From a virus (Duplodnaviria; Heunggongvirae; Uroviricota; Caudoviricetes): 33,362 nucleotides of DNA. Positions 412-19,397 of the stretch are shown here, piece after piece. The notes beneath the pieces were generated by a model, which saw only the letters and a program-made list of their open reading frames with translations, searched no databases and was not told the origin of the DNA. The stretch spans positions 1 through 33,362 of IMG/VR virus record IMGVR_UViG_3300025018_000115; one strand, 5' to 3'. How positions within the stretch are numbered: position 1 is the first letter of the stretch; each line of letters opens with the position of its first letter. The position numbers and the translations under genes were made by a program.

Positions 412-822
412 TTATTTTTTAATTAATAAATGACCTTCCCACGATAGTTGTGCATAACTTCTTGTGAATACTTCTTTGAATATCCAGATTGACCATCTAC
501 ATGTTGTGAGTTCTTTGGCGCCGAATATATGGTGACCTAACTCATGTAATGTGGATACTATGCTTGGTTTTTTTGTTTGTAATATAATGGTTTTCTTTTT
601 TGGATTATAAGCGGCTATATCTCTAAATTTTATTTTTGGAGATGGTTTCTTTTCAGCTTTTGATATTAATTTGATTAGTTTTTTTAATCTTTTGTTTTTT
701 TCACTTTTTTTAATATCTTTCCATCCTTTGTAGTTTTTTGATTTCCATTTTTTTATTACATTTATTGTGTCTGTTCTGATTGCAGGTCTTTTTTTAAGAA
801 TTTCTTCTTTTGTTGGATACAT
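412..822 (-). CDS. HExxH (zincin-like) metallopeptidase-motif protein
   Basis: STLHELGHHIFG motif preceded by a beta-strand-like AAYNPKKKTIIL segment; starts 1 nt after the class II GATase stop. Confidence 0.6.
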   Translation of the reverse strand: MYPTKEEILKKRPAIRTDTINVIKKWKSKNYKGWKDIKKSEKNKRLKKLIKLISKAEKKPSPKIKFRDIAAYNPKKKTIILQTKKPSIVSTLHELGHHIFGAKELTTCRWSIWIFKEVFTRSYAQLSWEGHLLIKK

Positions 823-823
823 T

Positions 824-2167
824 TTAGAAGTCGTTTACTCCATCATGGCCATATTTACTTATATGTCCTCTGAATCCGTGTTCTGATAGTTTGTATCCCG
901 CCCTTACCTTATTTGTATCGTATCCGTATCTTGAGTATGCTTCTTCTATTCCTGCATCTTCTATGGCATCTTCTTCTTCCTCTATTTCTTGTTCTCTTAT
1001 TGTGTCGAATTCTATTTCTCCTTCGTCTACTATTGCGAGCATGGCGTCTGCAATTTTTGCTAGTTTGTTTAGGAGTTTTCCCTTCGTTGTGTATTTATCT
1101 AGCATTATTTTTTCTCTGAATTCTCTGATTATTTCTGAAGCTTTGTCAATTTGGTCTTCCATTTCTGCATATGTTTTTTCGATGATTTCTAGAGATGTTC
1201 CTCCTGCTATTATTTTGTCACTAAAATCTGTTCTTATTCTGTCTACATATTTGTCGTCTACGTCGTCTGTCTCTCCTGTTCCTCCATTTTCCATATCCAT
1301 TTGTAGTGCCCATGATCTCATATTTTCTATTTCGACCTCGTCTTTGTCTTTTTTTGATTTAATATTTGTAAGAAGATTGTTTCCTGTGTAATTTGATTTT
1401 TCTGTTTCTGTCTTAGTAACTATTTTTTCTTCTTCTTTGTATATTAGATCAATATTTGATAATTTCATTTTATTATCTCCGATGTTGAAAGAGAATAGTT
1501 TTTCTCCTTCTACTTGTTCTCCAATCCCTTCACTTGATATCTTCATTGTTCCGCTTTTCTTGTCCATATTTAGATCTCCGTTTTGGTGTTGTCCGAAATA
1601 TACTTTTTCTGCTTTTTGTGTTTTTTTGTTTATTTGGACAATTAGAAATGCGGCTCTGTTTGTTGTTTCTATTTCTTTTGTTTTACCTTCTAAAAATAGA
1701 ACCATCTCTATTGCTAGTGTTTCTGTATCGTTCCATTTAATTGACTCTCCTGTGTATGTTGGTTCACATTCTGTTGTGTATTTGAATCCTAGTTCTTCGT
1801 GTTTTTTCTTTATATCTGTTATTCCGGTTACAACTCCGTTGTGCATAAAGAGATAATCTTTCTTTAGGATTTTGTTTGATACGAACATTGGGTGAGTCTG
1901 TCTCATCTTGTTATCTGTTGATGTTGGCTGTCTGTGATGCGCTAATATCATTGGTGCCTTTTTAAGAGTCAGATCGATTAAGAATTTTGTTTCTTGTGTT
2001 GCTCTATCTGTCTCTATTTTTCCTTTTTCGTTTATTCGTATTATTCCAAAACCTCTTGTTCCTCTCGTATATTGGTCTTGGTATTGGTTCATTACGAAAT
2101 CATTTGCGTCTTTTCCTTTTTGTGATTTGCTTGTTTTAGTGTTGAATTCTCCTATTAGTCCGCACAT
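824..2167 (-). CDS. class II (Ntn) glutamine amidotransferase with acidic helical C-terminal extension
   Basis: N-terminal MCGLIG (Cys2 nucleophile), RGTRGFG, AHHRQPT, THPM, HNG and DTE motifs. Confidence 0.88.
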   Translation of the reverse strand: MCGLIGEFNTKTSKSQKGKDANDFVMNQYQDQYTRGTRGFGIIRINEKGKIETDRATQETKFLIDLTLKKAPMILAHHRQPTSTDNKMRQTHPMFVSNKILKKDYLFMHNGVVTGITDIKKKHEELGFKYTTECEPTYTGESIKWNDTETLAIEMVLFLEGKTKEIETTNRAAFLIVQINKKTQKAEKVYFGQHQNGDLNMDKKSGTMKISSEGIGEQVEGEKLFSFNIGDNKMKLSNIDLIYKEEEKIVTKTETEKSNYTGNNLLTNIKSKKDKDEVEIENMRSWALQMDMENGGTGETDDVDDKYVDRIRTDFSDKIIAGGTSLEIIEKTYAEMEDQIDKASEIIREFREKIMLDKYTTKGKLLNKLAKIADAMLAIVDEGEIEFDTIREQEIEEEEDAIEDAGIEEAYSRYGYDTNKVRAGYKLSEHGFRGHISKYGHDGVNDF

Positions 2168-2186
2168 TGTTTCATATTTTTAGTTA

Positions 2187-3803
2187 TTAGAATACGTAAG
2201 ATGTTACCTCTTGATCTTCTTCGTGAGATAATTCTTCGATTGTATTTTCGATTGCATTTTTGTGATTATTTAGGCTTATTGATCCTTCATCTATCACTAC
2301 TTCTTCTTTTTGTTCGACCTGTCTTGTTAATACTTTGTATACCTTTCCTTGTCTTGCAAGTGGTAGGTTTGTATCGTTGATTAGTCTTTTTGCTTTTTCA
2401 ATTTTTCCTTTTTCTAGATTCCAGATTATTTCCATAAATTCTTTTGTTTTTGGATTTGTTCTCATTTCATATGGAATACCTATAAGAATTGTTTTTTCTC
2501 TTGCGTCTTCAATTTTTCCTGTGATGAAGTTTAAAGATGCGTTTCTTGGAATTCCTACTGTTTGTGCAAATTTATTTTCCATCTTTTTGAATAGTGTTTT
2601 TGCTGAGTCTTCGTCTAATCGTGTTTTTATCACTGAATTTCCTATTAGTAGGTGTCCCTTTGTGTTTCTTGCGATTATTTTCTCTATTCCTTTTCTCATT
2701 CCAAAGATGTAGTAATTGTTTTTTATTTTCCAATTATGAGTTGCTATCTTGTCTTTTAGAATATCTGAGAATATTCCTACGTTTTCGTCTTGATTGTAGA
2801 ATACACTGATTGCTCCTTTAATAGAATCGATATCAATTTCTGTCTTTTTTACTTTTTCTTTTTTGGTTGATGTTGTTAGTTCTCTTTTTGTTGGTATTTT
2901 TGAATTTTTGAATTCCCAACCTAGTGCAATATTGTATTCTGCTTTCTCTTTGTCTTTAACTACCTGTTTCGCATTAAAGATATATTCTATTTCTTCTTTG
3001 AAAGCATCGTACATTTCGAATTTTTGGATTTCTTTTTTAATGTCTTTAATCAATGTTTTTGTCAATGATTTGAATTCCATTAGAGCTAGTGTTTGTAGTG
3101 CATCTCCTTGTTTGTCACTTTTAATTAGAATGTCATGACACTTTTTGAATGTCTCTGGTTTGAACATTATTTCGTGATATACGACTCCCATATATGCAAG
3201 TGTTGCGTTTGCAATTTTTGGTGTTGTTAACCATTCTGCTGATGGGCATCTGAATTCTATTGTGTATCCTGGGTTTCCATTTTGGTGAGTGAATTTTTCT
3301 TCTAATCTCATGTCATTGATTTTTCCATATCCTTGTTTTGTTCGAAGGCTTAGATTTGTTTTGTTTTCTGTAATTAGGATTGGTAGATAGAAAGAAGATA
3401 ATCGTCTTTGTATTGTGTTTTTTAATGCTCCGTCTATTCTTTTATATCCATCTGGTACCTCAAGATGAATATGTCCTCCTACTGCGCTGTGCTCTGATAG
3501 GGTTGACATGTCACATAAACTACTATATTTACTGAATTCTTTTAACATTCCTCCTATGTTGCTAACAACTCCTTCTGGGGTGTTAGATGGCTTTGGTCTA
3601 ATTTCTGCTGTTGATGATGCTCCGTCCCATCCTAGGTTTCCAAATTGTTTTATGTCAAAACCTTGGCTTGATGGGCTAAAGTCTTTTTTGTTTTTTAACA
3701 TAAGACTCATTGTTCTCTGTGCATCAATCTTTTTTTTCTGTATTGTTAATACAAATTCTGGATCGGCTCCCAGTTTAAAATTGAATTTTTTATTTGTTGT
3801 CAT
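2187..3803 (-). CDS. phiEco32-like COOH-NH2 ligase type 2 (glutamine synthetase-like fold) with long C-terminal extension
   Basis: LGADPEF, GWDG..AEIRP.PS, GGHIH and EFRCPSAEWL motifs; start moved to ATG 3803, directly after the stop of the 3806..4456 ORF. Confidence 0.85.
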   Translation of the reverse strand: MTTNKKFNFKLGADPEFVLTIQKKKIDAQRTMSLMLKNKKDFSPSSQGFDIKQFGNLGWDGASSTAEIRPKPSNTPEGVVSNIGGMLKEFSKYSSLCDMSTLSEHSAVGGHIHLEVPDGYKRIDGALKNTIQRRLSSFYLPILITENKTNLSLRTKQGYGKINDMRLEEKFTHQNGNPGYTIEFRCPSAEWLTTPKIANATLAYMGVVYHEIMFKPETFKKCHDILIKSDKQGDALQTLALMEFKSLTKTLIKDIKKEIQKFEMYDAFKEEIEYIFNAKQVVKDKEKAEYNIALGWEFKNSKIPTKRELTTSTKKEKVKKTEIDIDSIKGAISVFYNQDENVGIFSDILKDKIATHNWKIKNNYYIFGMRKGIEKIIARNTKGHLLIGNSVIKTRLDEDSAKTLFKKMENKFAQTVGIPRNASLNFITGKIEDAREKTILIGIPYEMRTNPKTKEFMEIIWNLEKGKIEKAKRLINDTNLPLARQGKVYKVLTRQVEQKEEVVIDEGSISLNNHKNAIENTIEELSHEEDQEVTSYVF

Positions 3804-3805
3804 TT

Positions 3806-4456
3806 TTAATTTGTTGAATAAAATCTTTGTTCTATTAATTGTCTGTATTCTTTTTTGGTGTTTAGTGTTTGGCATTCTTCACATTCAATATATTCTTCTT
3901 CATTTGCTCTTGCATCACAAATGATGATATGTTTGCATTCTTTGCAGATTATTGTTGTGTCGGTTGTGTCATCTCCTCTTTCGTTTGAGAATAAACTACT
4001 TATTTGGTTATTTGAGATGTTTACTCTGGCTTCTTCATCTTCTTCTAGTATGTTAGTTGGTTCTTCCATTGATCTTTCCCATCCTTCTCCGGCTGTTAAT
4101 ATGCCGTTTCTTCCTGTTTGTATTTCACTTGGCGCAAATGTAACTCCCGGTCTTGCTGGTTGATCAGAAACAGTCAAAGTTTCTGGTAGTGATGGTGAAT
4201 CTCTCCATACTAGTTCATTAAGAAAAAGAGTTCTGTCACATTCCATACATTCGTATTCTGGGCTTCCGTCCCAGTTTGTTTCTTCATTATCTGATTCATA
4301 GTCTCCCAAACTATCCATGTCTTCTGGTGACATTGCTCTTCCTCTTGCATTTGAGCCAGGTGATGGGAGATCGAAGTTTCCGTATTCGTGTCCTATAACA
4401 GGTCTGCTGTATCTAAGTTGGCATACTTCGTTCTCGCAATTTGGACATTCCCACAT
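3806..4456 (-). CDS. acidic protein with four CxxC pairs (two putative Zn ribbons)
   Basis: CPNC, CMEC, CKEC, CEEC; packed between the two amidase/ligase genes. Confidence 0.75.
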   Translation of the reverse strand: MWECPNCENEVCQLRYSRPVIGHEYGNFDLPSPGSNARGRAMSPEDMDSLGDYESDNEETNWDGSPEYECMECDRTLFLNELVWRDSPSLPETLTVSDQPARPGVTFAPSEIQTGRNGILTAGEGWERSMEEPTNILEEDEEARVNISNNQISSLFSNERGDDTTDTTIICKECKHIIICDARANEEEYIECEECQTLNTKKEYRQLIEQRFYSTN

Positions 4457-4463
4457 ATTGTTT

Positions 4464-5264
4464 TTAATTAGTCAAATATTTTTCTATGAAATATTTGATG
4501 ATTGGACTGTCTTTGTATTCTTCTGGGTGATATTGAACAGCAACTATTTTTAGTTTTTCTGATTCAAATCCTTCAATAAGGTGTTGTGTTGCCATTATTA
4601 TTTCTATTTCTGTTCCTTCTGAATATTCTTTGACAGCTTCTGATAATTCTCTTCTTACTTTTTTTCCATCTTCTTGTATTGTAAATCCTTGGTGGTGCCA
4701 AGAGTTTACTTTGTATTTTTCTGTTCTTATTCTTTCTTTGTATATTTCTTCTAAGAAATCTTTGTATTTTCCAAATATTTCAACAAAATGCATTGATTCC
4801 TTTCGATTACTTATGTCTGAGTATCTTCCATCGTGACCGCTTTCTATTGATGAGATGCTTTGTTTGAAGTTTTTTAGATTTGCGAGTTGTCCTAATAGTT
4901 GGAATCCTCTACATATCCCGAATATTGGTTTCTCTTGTTTAACGAATTCTAGTGCTAGTATTTTTTCGAAAGTATCTCTGTTTTCTGAAAAACTATTTGA
5001 TGCATCTACTTCTTCTCCATATGATGTTGGATTTAGATCTACGCCTCCAGATAAAACTAACATATCATATTGTTTGGCGATTTCTTCTGCTTTCTTTTTT
5101 GTGTTTTTTTCTTCTTCGTCAGTTGCCATTTCTCCTTCTTTTTCTACTAAGCAAGGAATTATAACTGGTAGCGTTTTTTCAGTGTCGAACGCTCGTATAT
5201 ATGCTGAGTTTATGAATTCTTGCGTTTTGTTTTGTGAACTTGTTATTGCTACTAATTTTTTCAT
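4464..5264 (-). CDS. class I glutamine amidotransferase-like / peptidase C26 (gamma-glutamyl hydrolase, PuuD-like)
   Basis: LSGGVDLNP.SYGE, RD.FE, GICRGFQ (Cys nucleophile), NSWHHQG, VQYHPE (His-Glu); start moved to ATG 5264. Confidence 0.9.
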   Translation of the reverse strand: MKKLVAITSSQNKTQEFINSAYIRAFDTEKTLPVIIPCLVEKEGEMATDEEEKNTKKKAEEIAKQYDMLVLSGGVDLNPTSYGEEVDASNSFSENRDTFEKILALEFVKQEKPIFGICRGFQLLGQLANLKNFKQSISSIESGHDGRYSDISNRKESMHFVEIFGKYKDFLEEIYKERIRTEKYKVNSWHHQGFTIQEDGKKVRRELSEAVKEYSEGTEIEIIMATQHLIEGFESEKLKIVAVQYHPEEYKDSPIIKYFIEKYLTN

Positions 5265-5266
5265 TG

Positions 5267-5527
5267 TTATTTTATTCTTAGTTCTAGCCATCCTCCTTCG
5301 ATTTTTCTTTCTGTCCATTTTTTACCTGTTCTTTTTGACATATCAGCAAGATGCGCTGAGGGGTTTGATTTGTATGGCCATTCTGATTTTGGAACGAATA
5401 CAGCTTGATTTACTTTTTGTTTTTTAAAGAAATCGTGTGCCTTCATTGGTCCTTGGTTTTCTCCTGCCATTCTTTCAAATTGTACTTTTGTTAGAAATCT
5501 TAATTTGTCTTTTTTAATTTTTATCAT
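5267..5527 (-). CDS. small basic hypothetical protein, possibly nucleic-acid binding
   Basis: ORF track; A-rich leader; stop 2 nt before the next ATG. Confidence 0.7.
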   Translation of the reverse strand: MIKIKKDKLRFLTKVQFERMAGENQGPMKAHDFFKKQKVNQAVFVPKSEWPYKSNPSAHLADMSKRTGKKWTERKIEGGWLELRIK

Positions 5528-5545
5528 TTTTTTGTTGTTTAATAT

Positions 5546-5815
5546 TGATGTGCAAATTCTAGGGCTCCACGTTAATTTTAACTAGGAACGAAATGTGCTT
5601 TTATTACTTCTGTCTAGGCTACTTGAGAAAGTGATCAGACTTTCTTTTTTGCTTTGTGCGCCAACTTGGCTACATCTGTTTTTATTACATCAGTTTTTCC
5701 CGAAGGATTTCCCTTTCATTTCGTTAATTTAACCTGCCTTTGATTACGTTTCGCTGGGTGGGGTTTTATACTTCCGAACTCTTTAAAATTCTGAAGCCCT
5801 AGAATTTGCACATCA
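5546..5815 (-). ncRNA. candidate 270-nt structured RNA (or non-autonomous element) closed by a 21-bp inverted repeat
   Basis: tgatgtgcaaattctagggct (5546-5566) / agccctagaatttgcacatca (5795-5815); inner stems 5587-5595/5717-5725 and 5626-5632/5639-5645; cUUCGg loop on the minus strand (5698-5707); no ORF. Confidence 0.6.
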
Positions 5816-5824
5816 GATTAGTTA

Positions 5825-6040
5825 TTAATCTTTGCGCTCTTTGCATTCAGGGTCTAAACACCATCCTCTTTCGTGTCCTTTTTTGCTAATTTCTTCGAAG
5901 AATTCGTTTATATCAGTATCTTTAATAATTTCTTGATAGATTAGATCTGGAACGCCACTTATTAGTAGTGACATTATTTCATATCTTGTTTTATCAAACA
6001 TGCATACGAACATTTCGCTTTTAATTTCTTTTTTTGACAT
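5825..6040 (-). CDS. hypothetical protein (71 aa)
   Basis: ORF track; tight packing. Confidence 0.7.
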   Translation of the reverse strand: MSKKEIKSEMFVCMFDKTRYEIMSLLISGVPDLIYQEIIKDTDINEFFEEISKKGHERGWCLDPECKERKD

Positions 6041-7711: not shown

Positions 7712-9112
7712 CTATGCTATTTTGATGTCTTTGTATCTTTCACTGTTTATTACATCTTCTACTACCTCTTCTGGAGTTTTGTTTTCTACAGCAATTTTGA
7801 ATGTTGAAGGTGAAAATCCTGATACTAAGGTAACTCCCTTTTCTGTTGCTGTTGTTGGTATGTTTGTGTTTCTTGCGTCTACATTCCAGAATACCACATT
7901 AGGAATTTTATAACCAGCTTCTTTGTACTGGTCTTGAATTAATTCGTAGGAAGTTCTTGTCGGTGAGGCTTGATCGAATTGCATATCAGAGATTATGTAG
8001 ATTGTCTCTGGCATATCTTTTTCTGATACTTTGTTTTGAACTGCTGTGTTTAGTAAGACTGTGAATATTTTGTTTAGATCTGTGTTGTATCCCCATTCTG
8101 TTTTTTCAATCATTTTTATCTTTTCTTCTAGTGTTTCTCCTTTTATTTCTTGTATTTCTGGTGTTTCTGAGAATGTAATGAAGTGATTATGGAATGCGCC
8201 TTGATTTCTTTCTGCGAAGTATAATGCTAGTGAAACTGATACAGACATTGGTCGTCCTTGCATTGAACCTGAAACGTCAGCTACAACGATTCCATTTTTA
8301 CCTCTTGTGTAATCTGGTAGGTTTTTCCATAATTCATCTGAACCTGTTTCTGATGCTCTTTCGTATATTTGGTGTGGGAAAAGAGTTCTTGTGTTTATCT
8401 TTTCTTCTCCTTTATTGACAGATTCTAGATATGTTGTGTATCTATTTTCATCATTCCTAAAGAAAGCTTTCTTGTATTTTAGTGATGCTTGAGATGGCAC
8501 TTTGCTGTATTCAATCTCGTTGAATTCTTTTCTTGACATCTTTTGTTCCACTAATTTAATCTTTTTTCTTAGTTGTGAAAGAGTTTTTCTGTATTCTCTT
8601 GGACTTGCGCCTAATGCTTTCATTATTTCTCTTGCTTTCGCTTTAGTTTCTTTTGATGAAGCATTTTCTGATGGTAACCACTTTGCGAGTAGAGATGGAG
8701 TCTCTGATTTGAAATCTTGGATTAGCTGTTCTTTGATGATTGGCGCTATTGTATCTATTTCGAATGATAGAAGATCATCGTATCTCCCGTATTCTGGGGT
8801 GTATTTTGCTATGGTATTAGCTATTTCTGGCTTATTTTCTCTTAAATAAGAAATACAATTTCTGAAGAGAGTTCTTTCTCCTTGTCCGCCTCGTATATCT
8901 CGGAGGTAAAAAAGGATTTTAATAGCTTTTTCTGGGTTTTCTATTAGGGCTTTAGAGAATAGTTCTATTCCTATTTCTGGGTTATCTCTTGTTGCTCCTG
9001 CTAGTGCAAAGAAGTCTACTATTGATTTTCCTGAGTGCGTAAGAGTTTGAGCTCCATTCTCTGTCTCTGTACGATTCATTGTACCTTTTAGTTTGTTTAT
9101 TAATTTATTCAT
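7712..9112 (-). CDS. DUF2828-family protein (helical N-terminal domain + C-terminal vWA/MIDAS domain; TROVE/Ro60-like architecture)
   Basis: YLRDIRGGQGER, EYGRYDDL, LAKWLPSE, YSKVPSQA, VADVSGSM (MIDAS DxSxS), ISDMQFD, VFWNV, LVSGFSPS; start placed at ATG 9112, overlapping the upstream stop. Confidence 0.88.
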   Translation of the reverse strand: MNKLINKLKGTMNRTETENGAQTLTHSGKSIVDFFALAGATRDNPEIGIELFSKALIENPEKAIKILFYLRDIRGGQGERTLFRNCISYLRENKPEIANTIAKYTPEYGRYDDLLSFEIDTIAPIIKEQLIQDFKSETPSLLAKWLPSENASSKETKAKAREIMKALGASPREYRKTLSQLRKKIKLVEQKMSRKEFNEIEYSKVPSQASLKYKKAFFRNDENRYTTYLESVNKGEEKINTRTLFPHQIYERASETGSDELWKNLPDYTRGKNGIVVADVSGSMQGRPMSVSVSLALYFAERNQGAFHNHFITFSETPEIQEIKGETLEEKIKMIEKTEWGYNTDLNKIFTVLLNTAVQNKVSEKDMPETIYIISDMQFDQASPTRTSYELIQDQYKEAGYKIPNVVFWNVDARNTNIPTTATEKGVTLVSGFSPSTFKIAVENKTPEEVVEDVINSERYKDIKIA

Positions 9113-9377
9113 GTTTTTGGTTACGACATTTTTTACATGTCTTATAATTTTCATCTTCTTTCTTCCGTCCACATCGTGAACATCTGTCTTGTTGCAGTCT
9201 AATCTTGGCTTGATAATTTCTTGATAGGTTTATGCATTTTTCGCATCTTGTTCGACCTTTTTGTATTGGGTTTCTTATGCAATTTCTGCATACACCTAGA
9301 GAATTAGCAAAATCTTTGATTTCTTTAATTTTCTTTTTCACTTTATTGATTTTCTCTATTTTGTAATTCTCGTACAA
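9105..9377 (-). CDS. small protein with two tandem CxxC...CxxC Zn fingers
   Basis: CRNC..RCEKC and CSRC..TCKKC; start uncertain (TTG 9377 or GTG 9341). Confidence 0.7.
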   Translation of the reverse strand: MYENYKIEKINKVKKKIKEIKDFANSLGVCRNCIRNPIQKGRTRCEKCINLSRNYQAKIRLQQDRCSRCGRKKEDENYKTCKKCRNQKHE

Positions 9378-18239: not shown

Positions 18240-19397
18240 ATGGATAAAATAAAAACATTCATCCCATGGGATGAGATAGAAAAAGAAGCTCAGGATCAAA
18301 TAAAAGAAACATCATCAATGCCTTTTATTTTTAGACATGTTGCAGTAATGCCAGACTGTCATTACGGGAAGGGGTCAACGGTGGGTACTGTTATAGCAAC
18401 GCAGGGAGCGATTATTCCAGCCGCAGTTGGAGTAGATATCGGGTGTGGAATGATTGCTGTTAAAACAAATCTTAACTACAAAGAGCTAGTTGACATCCCG
18501 GCATTACGTCATTCGATTGAGAGGTCTGTGCCAATGAGTGCAGGTAAGTACAATAACAAAATAAGCGAGTCTGCTCAGAAAAGAATAGATGAACTTGAGG
18601 TGCTAGAACATACAGATAGAGTTCGTGGTAATTGGCAGAATCAACTAGGAACACTTGGTGGAGGAAATCACTTTATAGAAATATGTTACGACGAGGAAGG
18701 ATCAATGTGGGTGACTCTTCATTCTGGATCTAGAGGTGTCGGAAACAAAGTTGGGAACACCTATATTAAAATTGCACAGAAGATATGCAAGGACATGTTT
18801 GTAAGTTTGCCTAACGATGACCTTGCATATATTCCAGAAGGGCACGTTGAGTTTGATAATTACATGAAGGATCTAAAATGGTCACAGAGATTTGCAATGC
18901 TTAACAGGGAAGAAATGATGGACAGAGTTTTGAAAGATGTTAGTTATGCGTTCTTCGGAGAGAACGGGCATCAGGAAGAATTTGAGATCGAAAGAATAAA
19001 TTCACACCATAACTTCACACAGGTAGAGGACCATATGGGAGGAAGGGCATGGATAACAAGAAAAGGGGCAATAGAAGCATCTGAAGGGAAGAAGGCTATG
19101 ATCCCTGGGTCTATGGGAACAAGAAGTTATATTGTTATTGGAAAGGGGGAAGAAACATCTTTTTGTTCAGCCCCACATGGCGCAGGAAGAAGAATGAGTC
19201 GAACAAAGGCCAGGGAGATATTTACCGAAAAAGATCTTGATGAGTCAATGAACGGAATTGAATATCGAAAATCGAAAGTCCTTATTGATGAAATACCAGG
19301 AGCATATAAGGATATAGACCAAACGATAGAGTACGCAAAAGAACTTGTTGGTGTCGAACATAAGTTGAAGCAGATATTAAATTGTAAGGGTGATTAA
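18240..19397 (+). CDS. rtcB: RtcB family RNA ligase (3'-phosphate / 2',3'-cyclic phosphate ligase)
   Basis: MPDCHYGKG, GVDIGCGM, GTLGGGNHFIE, HSGSRG, HHN, RKGA, PGSMGT, SAPHGAGR, DEIPGAYKDI are all intact. Confidence 0.96.
   Translation: MDKIKTFIPWDEIEKEAQDQIKETSSMPFIFRHVAVMPDCHYGKGSTVGTVIATQGAIIPAAVGVDIGCGMIAVKTNLNYKELVDIPALRHSIERSVPMSAGKYNNKISESAQKRIDELEVLEHTDRVRGNWQNQLGTLGGGNHFIEICYDEEGSMWVTLHSGSRGVGNKVGNTYIKIAQKICKDMFVSLPNDDLAYIPEGHVEFDNYMKDLKWSQRFAMLNREEMMDRVLKDVSYAFFGENGHQEEFEIERINSHHNFTQVEDHMGGRAWITRKGAIEASEGKKAMIPGSMGTRSYIVIGKGEETSFCSAPHGAGRRMSRTKAREIFTEKDLDESMNGIEYRKSKVLIDEIPGAYKDIDQTIEYAKELVGVEHKLKQILNCKGD

Follow-up and report, generated by a model that had tools for sequence, protein, structure and literature searches.

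In E. coli, a leader-trailer helix of more than 17 bp is needed for biogenesis of the 30S subunit, and this helix is also the site of RNase III cleavage (PMC10250234). In the rRNA operons the helix both insulates folding of the enclosed RNA and is the site of its excision. The phage element described here, which lies in a window of 33,362 nt (the whole stretch of DNA that was analysed), is like this system in that complementary sequences flank a structured RNA in what would be a polycistronic transcript, and cleavage of its closing helix, P1, is predicted. It is unlike the rRNA operons in that the enclosed RNA, of about 230 nt, has no relation to rRNA, and in that P1 is a perfect duplex with neither boxA nor boxC.

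Small stable RNAs whose functions are little known lie in the tRNA regions of phages, as exemplified by rnaC and rnaD of T4 and the stable RNAs of T5. The family reported here is like these RNAs in being phage-encoded, non-coding and structured, and in standing where relatives have tRNA genes; the T4 and T5 RNAs are processed from longer transcripts, as is predicted for the phage family. Unlike them, it is larger, has no sequence or model similarity to them, and has a closing helix of about 21 bp in place of a tRNA-like acceptor. Another comparison is with GOLLD, ROOL and the abundant early ncRNA of the crAss-like phage phi14:2, which are likewise elaborately folded phage RNAs with conserved hairpin loops. 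The present RNA differs from these in having no Rfam match, in its smaller size and in its position inside an operon, and the covariance model of the family (R1, filters off) had no match in the first 12 kb of phi14:2, the g004-g005 gap included.

Genes for Ro, Y RNA and RtcB have been found to cluster in bacteria (10.1101/312249). Some members of the phage family recall the b7a-tRNA / RtcB / Band-7 module: the RNA gene lies by rtcB, directly or one ORF off, in four of its ten members, and in two of those four (L018 and L031) a Band-7/SPFH gene is found downstream, as in the predicted b7a-tRNA systems. In contrast to the b7a-tRNA module, the RNA is not tRNA-like (ARAGORN, Rfam tRNA and YrlA searches were negative) and does not travel with Ro60 or DUF2828, and the rtcB gene of the window's phage lies elsewhere.

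A non-coding element closed by an inverted repeat

The element and the genes around it are as follows.

5546..5815, minus strand: whole RNA element, member of a 10-sequence family (model R1, 82 bits at 5715-5822(-); no ORF)
5792..5815, minus strand: 5' strand of P1, the closing helix, at the 5' end of the RNA (inverted repeat and family covariation)
5546..5569, minus strand: 3' strand of P1, the closing helix, at the 3' end of the RNA (inverted repeat and family covariation)
5825..6040, minus strand: upstream ORF, 71 aa, with its stop 9 nt before the RNA
5267..5527, minus strand: downstream orphan ORF, 86 aa, with the amidoligase module after it
412-5318, downstream of the RNA: amidoligase module, with C26 GATase, Zn-ribbon, COOH-NH2 ligase, class II GATase and HExxH
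7712-9172: DUF2828/vWA protein, an RNA-binding protein according to PHROGs

The non-coding element is 270 nt long, is intergenic and is read as a minus-strand RNA. Its terminal arms, 5546-5566 and 5795-5815, pair in 21 bp without a mismatch. When a single mismatch is allowed, read as C.A on the plus strand and as G.U on the minus strand, the repeat stretches to 24 bp (5546-5569 / 5792-5815); this agrees with the preliminary description, in which a perfect 21-bp repeat was extended by 3 bp through a minus-strand wobble. The arm pattern has no further site in the window, where 0.01 matches are expected, and the arms are the longest inverted repeat within 3 kb across the phage genome of 97,362 bp. 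In that genome the element is present as a single copy and is the sole intergenic cassette with an inverted-repeat score of at least 15, block shuffles giving 0-1. Its G+C content equals that of the genome (37.8% vs 37.6%), so it is not compositionally foreign.

No open frame is found within the element in any frame. It starts 9 nt past the stop of the upstream ORF, which is without a Pfam or PHROG match, and ends 18 nt ahead of the ATG of the downstream ORF, for which zero relatives were found among 5.8 billion proteins, and the earlier claim of a gap-filling element that holds no ORF is thereby confirmed. All local genes are on the minus strand. A scan for sigma-70-type promoters and intrinsic terminators found none in or around the element, and because of this, and of the genes lying 9 nt and 18 nt away, the RNA is considered to be part of a leftward polycistronic transcript. 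The minimum free energy fold is -82.8 kcal/mol on the plus strand (z -5.9) and -73.7 kcal/mol on the minus strand (z -5.4), so that both strands are far more stable than shuffled sequences, but these values are mostly an effect of the terminal repeat and give no choice of strand.

Homologues in related uncultured phages

Homologues were reached by way of the COOH-NH2 ligase (phiEco32-type) that is encoded 1.7 kb downstream, which has about 300 relatives, many of them on contigs of ~100 kb. An alignment of these relatives led to 12 viral and 69 metagenomic loci, and every member of the family but the window's own was reached via loci fetched by this one marker. An inverted-repeat scan of the fetched loci found several intergenic cassettes that have similar arms, such as UAUAAUGUGCAAG..UUCUGGG. 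Eight sequences, the window's included, went into an nhmmer profile, which recovered two more that had not been used to train it, L004 (3e-15) and L080 (2e-4). Each of the ten unique members scores between 78 and 102 bits with covariance model R1, which matches no other site in the 714 kb of related loci. With nine homologues in related uncultured phages, the family comprises 10 unique sequences of 250-363 nt. Stop codons are present in all six frames of every member, the gaps between members and flanking ORFs are mostly 4-29 nt, and the conserved 5' domain has the same direction as the genes in 10 of 10. Three records that were searched whole (G000, G001 and G007) hold one copy each.

Searches beyond these loci returned no further member. 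The family is not found in four complete relatives of a more distant subclade; the exact arm sequence is absent from IMG/VR, where a narrow core-motif scan matched only the contig already known; and a core-motif scan of 185,579 prokaryote genomes gave six chance matches, all of which fail the model. Among cultured relatives (INPHARED; blastn with the region, tblastn with the two flanking ORFs, the ligase and the portal), only a weak match to a Bacillus phage portal was obtained, and the C26 protein, used as a marker in IMG/VR, had zero relatives. On the evidence of these comparisons, the element founds a small uncatalogued RNA family in one clade of uncultured tailed phages of ~100 kb.

The related phages also carry many other intergenic cassettes of 90-350 nt, with closing helices of about 15-31 bp and differing interiors (L043:828-5496, L010:2857-3203, L009:3146-3314, L005:1239-1499, L024:1314-1511, L031:5317-5495, L039:5989-6132 and L099:4186-4276), and L043 alone holds five within 5 kb. 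Several share a design in which an AU-rich outer end is combined with an inner GGGG/CCCC clamp, and one (L043:4239-4351) has arms like those of the RNA family around a short and different core. These other stem-closed cassettes may form a superfamily with one shared processing route.

No assignment to a described class of RNA was obtained. Rfam cmscan over the whole window at the gathering threshold found nothing, the same search of 5400-5950 up to E=10 found nothing except a chance match to sR16 (snoRNA), five other members searched up to E=1 gave nothing, and ARAGORN found no tRNA or tmRNA in any member, in keeping with the earlier remark that the element could not be matched to the hallmarks of tRNA, tmRNA, RNase P or SRP. 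A 6S-like identity, which had been among the suggestions made, is not borne out by the Rfam models, and a ribozyme identity was likewise set aside, these models being without a match. The self-circularising RNA that was also suggested is not supported, since it has no ribozyme behind it. Covariance models of Y RNA and YrlA (RF02553 and relatives) had no match over the element or five members, no RVT_1 match that would point to a retron msr/msd exists anywhere in the 97-kb genome, and a tRNA-like effector domain mimicking a T-arm or D-arm is not indicated, ARAGORN having found no tRNA-like gene in any member. A T-loop reading of the motif UUCGNAA was rejected because its fifth position varies as does the N of GNRA. 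A riboswitch or gene-specific leader was also rejected, there being no constant downstream gene family; the first downstream ORF is not conserved, being unrelated from one member to another in most cases, and the element is therefore not a gene-specific leader.

Covariation of the closing helix and internal hairpins

Pairing of P1 is maintained throughout the family. A P1 core of 18-24 bp is present in every member, 18 of 23 pairs show compensatory changes in the full-length family alignment, and 87.8% of cells are paired, as against 30-44% once the partner is slid by 1-3 columns; the covariation score was reached by 0 of 500 shuffles. P1 is in this respect like the rRNA leader-trailer helices, in which the helix exceeds 17 bp and the sequence drifts while pairing is kept. 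G.U is a classic intermediate in the evolution of RNA helices, and two such pairs arise on the sense strand of L004, whose 3' arm has G at two positions where that of the closely related L016 has A. Across the family, internal mismatches of the closing helix number about 8-9 for G.U vs 2-3 for A.C. As judged from the alignment, the pairing of P1 is under selection.

Within P1, the following features are found in the window copy.

5769..5778, minus strand: P2, mini-hairpin UUC-GGAA-GUA with a GNRA tetraloop, then AUAA (family loop identity)
5732..5764, minus strand: P3, a CC..GG base helix and a 7-bp upper stem (RNAalifold covariation)
5698..5707, minus strand: P4, hairpin UCC-UUCG-GGA (window sequence)
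5627..5646, minus strand: P5, hairpin AGAAAGU-CUGAUC-ACUUUCU, which presents a UGAUC loop (loop conservation)
5587..5595 with 5717-5725, minus strand: 3' strand of a 9-bp long-range pairing private to the window copy (MFE folds)

Eight of ten members have GAAA, GGAA, GUAA or GCAA as the P2 loop; in L038 the loop is GAAAA and in L010 it is shifted by one column. Only 67% of cells of the 3-bp P2 stem are paired. P3 is capped by a conserved 7-nt loop, A(A/U)CGUAA, present in the window copy as AACGUAA at 5744-5750, and RNAalifold scores 10 of its 11 pairs as compensatory. When P2 and P3 are scored jointly, compensatory pairs number 12 of 14 and include all seven of the P3 upper stem, 82% of cells are paired vs 34-44% when slid, and the covariation score was reached by 0 of 500 shuffles. 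In the window copy the P3 upper stem is weak, with four of seven pairs and a 3x3 internal loop. Taken from the same alignment, this covariation indicates that the internal stem pairing, too, is under selection; since P3 covaries beneath a conserved loop, the terminal repeats of a transposon cannot explain the element. The preliminary description had proposed a search for homologues and for covariation, and nine homologues are now at hand in which compensatory changes keep both the closing helix and the internal stem. As a side observation, the P3 loop variant UCGUAA is a six-base match, of interest as a lead only, to what we take to be positions 1495-1500 of 16S rRNA, presumably just 3' of the colicin E3 cut that is repaired by RtcB2-PrfH.

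The minus-strand UCC-UUCG-GGA hairpin noticed earlier is present as P4; in relatives the hairpin at this place differs in sequence, with a GUAA loop in L016 and L004. An inner hairpin had been placed at 5626-5645, and P5 is indeed real, lying one base further on. The hairpin with a YUGAUCR loop is found in five of ten members, in which UGAUC is invariant on unrelated stems; since the loop is not in the same register in every member, this hairpin reaches no more than moderate formal covariation. The nested arm described before contains the 9-bp pairing of 5587-5595 with 5717-5725, and for this pairing no counterpart was seen by eye in the family alignment. Also set aside as unproven was a possible long-range helix, GAAUA/UAUUC, which pairs in 7-8 of ten members with both sides simply conserved and without covariation, as was a hammerhead-like CUGAUGA, which is not conserved and is found, in approximate form, in the window copy alone. 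Hairpins make up the body, and the rod shape first suggested has been abandoned.

Evidence on the strand favours the minus (operon) strand, not overwhelmingly, and comes from three features of the sequences: the tetraloops, the orientation shared by 10 of 10 members, and the excess of G.U over A.C in P1. The GNRA loop of P2 and the GUAA or UUCG loop of P4 are stable tetraloops on the sense strand only. Neutral or contrary to this reading, the plus strand folds slightly better, and in P3 mismatches of the G.U and A.C types are about equal (5 vs 5), so that the choice of strand within P3 rests on loop identity. The earlier proposal of a structured RNA on the operon strand thus gains from the homologues, the sense-strand tetraloops and the covariation; the minus-strand reading agrees with loops and G.U polarity, while thermodynamics alone gives no preference. 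Taken together, the element is very probably a functional structured RNA.

Gene neighbourhood

The amidoligase module (C26 GATase / COOH-NH2 ligase) is found within 1-6 ORFs downstream of the RNA in six of ten members, and the first downstream ORFs are small and mutually unrelated across the ten. The 86-aa ORF of the window stands as a fast-evolving small protein at the head of the amidoligase/peptidase module and could be a substrate peptide. A "ligase module" had been noted next door, and one is present, as an amidoligase (COOH-NH2 ligase) set and not an RNA ligase. By synteny, the RNA ligase that would be relevant is RtcB. The gene for DUF2828 lies 1.9 kb and four ORFs from the RNA, and among eight related records it is found in one, that of the window's genome; it is absent from the RNA carriers G001 and G007, whose records are 74% and 39% complete.

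RtcB ends 0-10 nt ahead of the RNA in L004 and L016. In L018, an internally deleted RtcB remnant (1075-1578), of which only residues about 10-64 and 286-384 align, lies 8 nt before an intact RNA, and in L031 one ORF is found between rtcB and the RNA. The gene is adjacent neither in the window nor in five other members; in the window's phage it is located at 18240-19397 on the other strand, 12 kb away, and has moved. Genes for LemA and TPM-domain proteins follow the RNA in L016 (2005-3148), and Band-7/SPFH genes are found 0.2-1.4 kb downstream of it in L018 (2048-2968) and L031 (4464-5294); in these three loci the LemA and TPM or Band-7/SPFH genes thus separate the RNA from the amidoligase module.

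In relatives, tRNA genes directly follow rtcB (L101:2773-2844, L102:4280-4351, L104:4183-4258 and L116:4206-4445), with tRNA-Pro(UGG) three times and Asn, Arg and Gln once each, and tRNA clusters precede rtcB in L114 and L117. These tRNA genes indicate that rtcB stands in a stable-RNA region and that the RNA family therefore occupies a tRNA-like slot. None of 28 further IMG/VR loci around close RtcB relatives, the four with tRNA genes right after rtcB included, carries the RNA family. Several loci of RtcB relatives have short non-coding gaps after rtcB, some of which fold well, and in 14 of 26 less than about 60 nt of non-coding sequence precedes the next called ORF; the short non-coding stretch after rtcB in L116 nonetheless holds three tRNA genes. 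In eight records, both evaluable RNA carriers have rtcB and three complete relatives that lack rtcB are without the RNA, an association that is confounded by phylogeny. A separate observation is that of a G+C-rich, hairpin-dense stretch of 140 nt right after rtcB (L005:3665-3805) in a complete relative without the RNA family, for which no Rfam family match was found.

Alternative explanations

The element might act purely in cis, as operon punctuation, a processing site cut by RNase III or a decay barrier, and would then control how stable the mRNA of the amidoligase module is or how well it is translated, the excised RNA having no role of its own. Phage T7 has RNase III sites between its early genes. 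A role of this sort agrees with the placing of the element at the edge of a module (in 6/10 members the C26 GATase / COOH-NH2 ligase module is within reach), with its tight spacing to both neighbouring genes and with the absence of any promoter or terminator of its own from the scan. A hairpin of about 60 nt would suffice for this purpose, however, whereas a body of 200-300 nt has been retained here, in which three loops are conserved and an internal stem covaries. Nor is there a conserved gene directly downstream on which it could act, unrelated small ORFs being found there in the ten members, and the location of the RNA directly behind rtcB in L004, L016 and L018 and one ORF off in L031, in what is a tRNA slot in relatives, also speaks against it. 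A purely cis-acting element is accordingly regarded as improbable.

A DNA-level element, such as a relic MITE or foldback transposon, an inverton, or inverted sites bound by a protein at an origin or in partition, would account for perfect 21-bp terminal repeats around about 230 bp of non-coding DNA, for the ends of several members reading TA...TA, and for the turnover hinted at by the non-homologous inverted-repeat cassettes of relatives. Identical arms could also, in principle, be maintained by gene conversion or by a protein that binds them as DNA; against this, the arms diverge between phages yet stay complementary, with G.U intermediates, and the internal hairpin covaries under a conserved loop. 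The cumulative GC skew has its minimum near 6.7 kb, and because the curve is flat it is uninformative as a test for an origin. Mobility is further argued against by the single copy in each of three records and the absence of the arm from IMG/VR, by the one orientation of all ten homologues relative to the operon, and by the genome having neither a reverse transcriptase nor a serine or tyrosine recombinase (Resolvase and Phage_integrase domains). No convincing target-site duplication was found, merely a 3-bp GTT at loosened ends (5537-5539 and 5821-5823, if the repeat is extended via an imperfect TAAT..ATTA), which is not seen in other members; the check for a MITE origin that had been put forward thus returned a single copy and no consistent target-site duplication across ten members. 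A DNA-level origin is considered very improbable, and a Y-RNA-like partner of a phage Ro60-like DUF2828 protein, bound via the closing helix, is more improbable again. The latter was suggested earlier as a Ro-like ligand, and it has in its favour that the window encodes a DUF2828/vWA protein which PHROGs describes as RNA-binding, and that Y RNAs are closed by a long terminal stem. It is disfavoured because DUF2828 is absent from the other RNA-carrying records (G001 and G007, both incomplete) and is present in 1/8 overall; in addition, its gene in the window is four ORFs removed from the RNA, neither a Y RNA or YrlA match in Rfam nor a tRNA-like domain is found, and the helix is a perfect duplex without a conserved bulge.

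Proposed processing and function

The best explanation, which is held to be probable, is that of a structured ncRNA of an uncatalogued family that is transcribed with its operon and closed by P1, with P1 serving in release or insulation. Following the analogy with the rRNA leader and trailer, a three-step route is proposed that ends with RNase III of the host cutting out the RNA. The RNA would be co-transcribed with the minus-strand operon, and its ends would pair into a P1 of 21-24 bp around a multi-hairpin body, made up of the GNRA mini-hairpin, the two-part stem with A(A/U)CGUAA, a variable hairpin and the UGAUC hairpin. P1 would insulate the folding of this RNA from the flanking mRNA and, at about two helical turns, would be long enough for a cut by RNase III of the host, which would be needed because the phage encodes none; neither an RNase III nor a dsRBD protein was found among the phage proteins. 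Such a cut would free a stable RNA, some 230-270 nt long, and would separate the upstream mRNA from that of the amidoligase module. By analogy, P1 could be a processing site of the RNase III type, a tentative proposal that falls a little short of an even call.

The conserved loops are likely contact points for a partner; GAUC and ACGU, which occur in them, are each self-complementary. Synteny with the rtcB slot that is filled by tRNA genes in relatives makes a role in RNA repair, or one related to tRNA, the best lead; a function linked to RtcB or RNA repair is nonetheless rated as unlikely. Rated as unlikely, too, is the specific form in which the RNA would be a partner or substrate of RtcB, a non-tRNA counterpart of YrlA and b7a-tRNA that acts as a decoy or a circle. 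As a decoy, its conserved loops would draw an RNA-cutting defence of the host and RtcB would reseal the RNA, while as a circle the RNA ends held together by P1 would be joined.

Significance for phage biology

Phage genomes are still annotated nearly entirely as proteins, and here a sizeable RNA gene backed by covariation was hidden in an operon. The family has a defined architecture with three conserved loops that can be mutated, and P1 offers a natural test case for how stable RNAs may be embedded in mRNAs without promoters or terminators of their own, in the style of rRNA processing. The ancestral slot behind rtcB, in which the RNA is interchangeable with tRNA, adds a non-tRNA candidate to the RNAs on which, or with which, RtcB may act in bacteria and phages. 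Should the link to RtcB prove true, the question can be approached by experiment with two recombinant components, and an RNA that is a partner of RtcB would represent a new class of phage counter-defence RNA.
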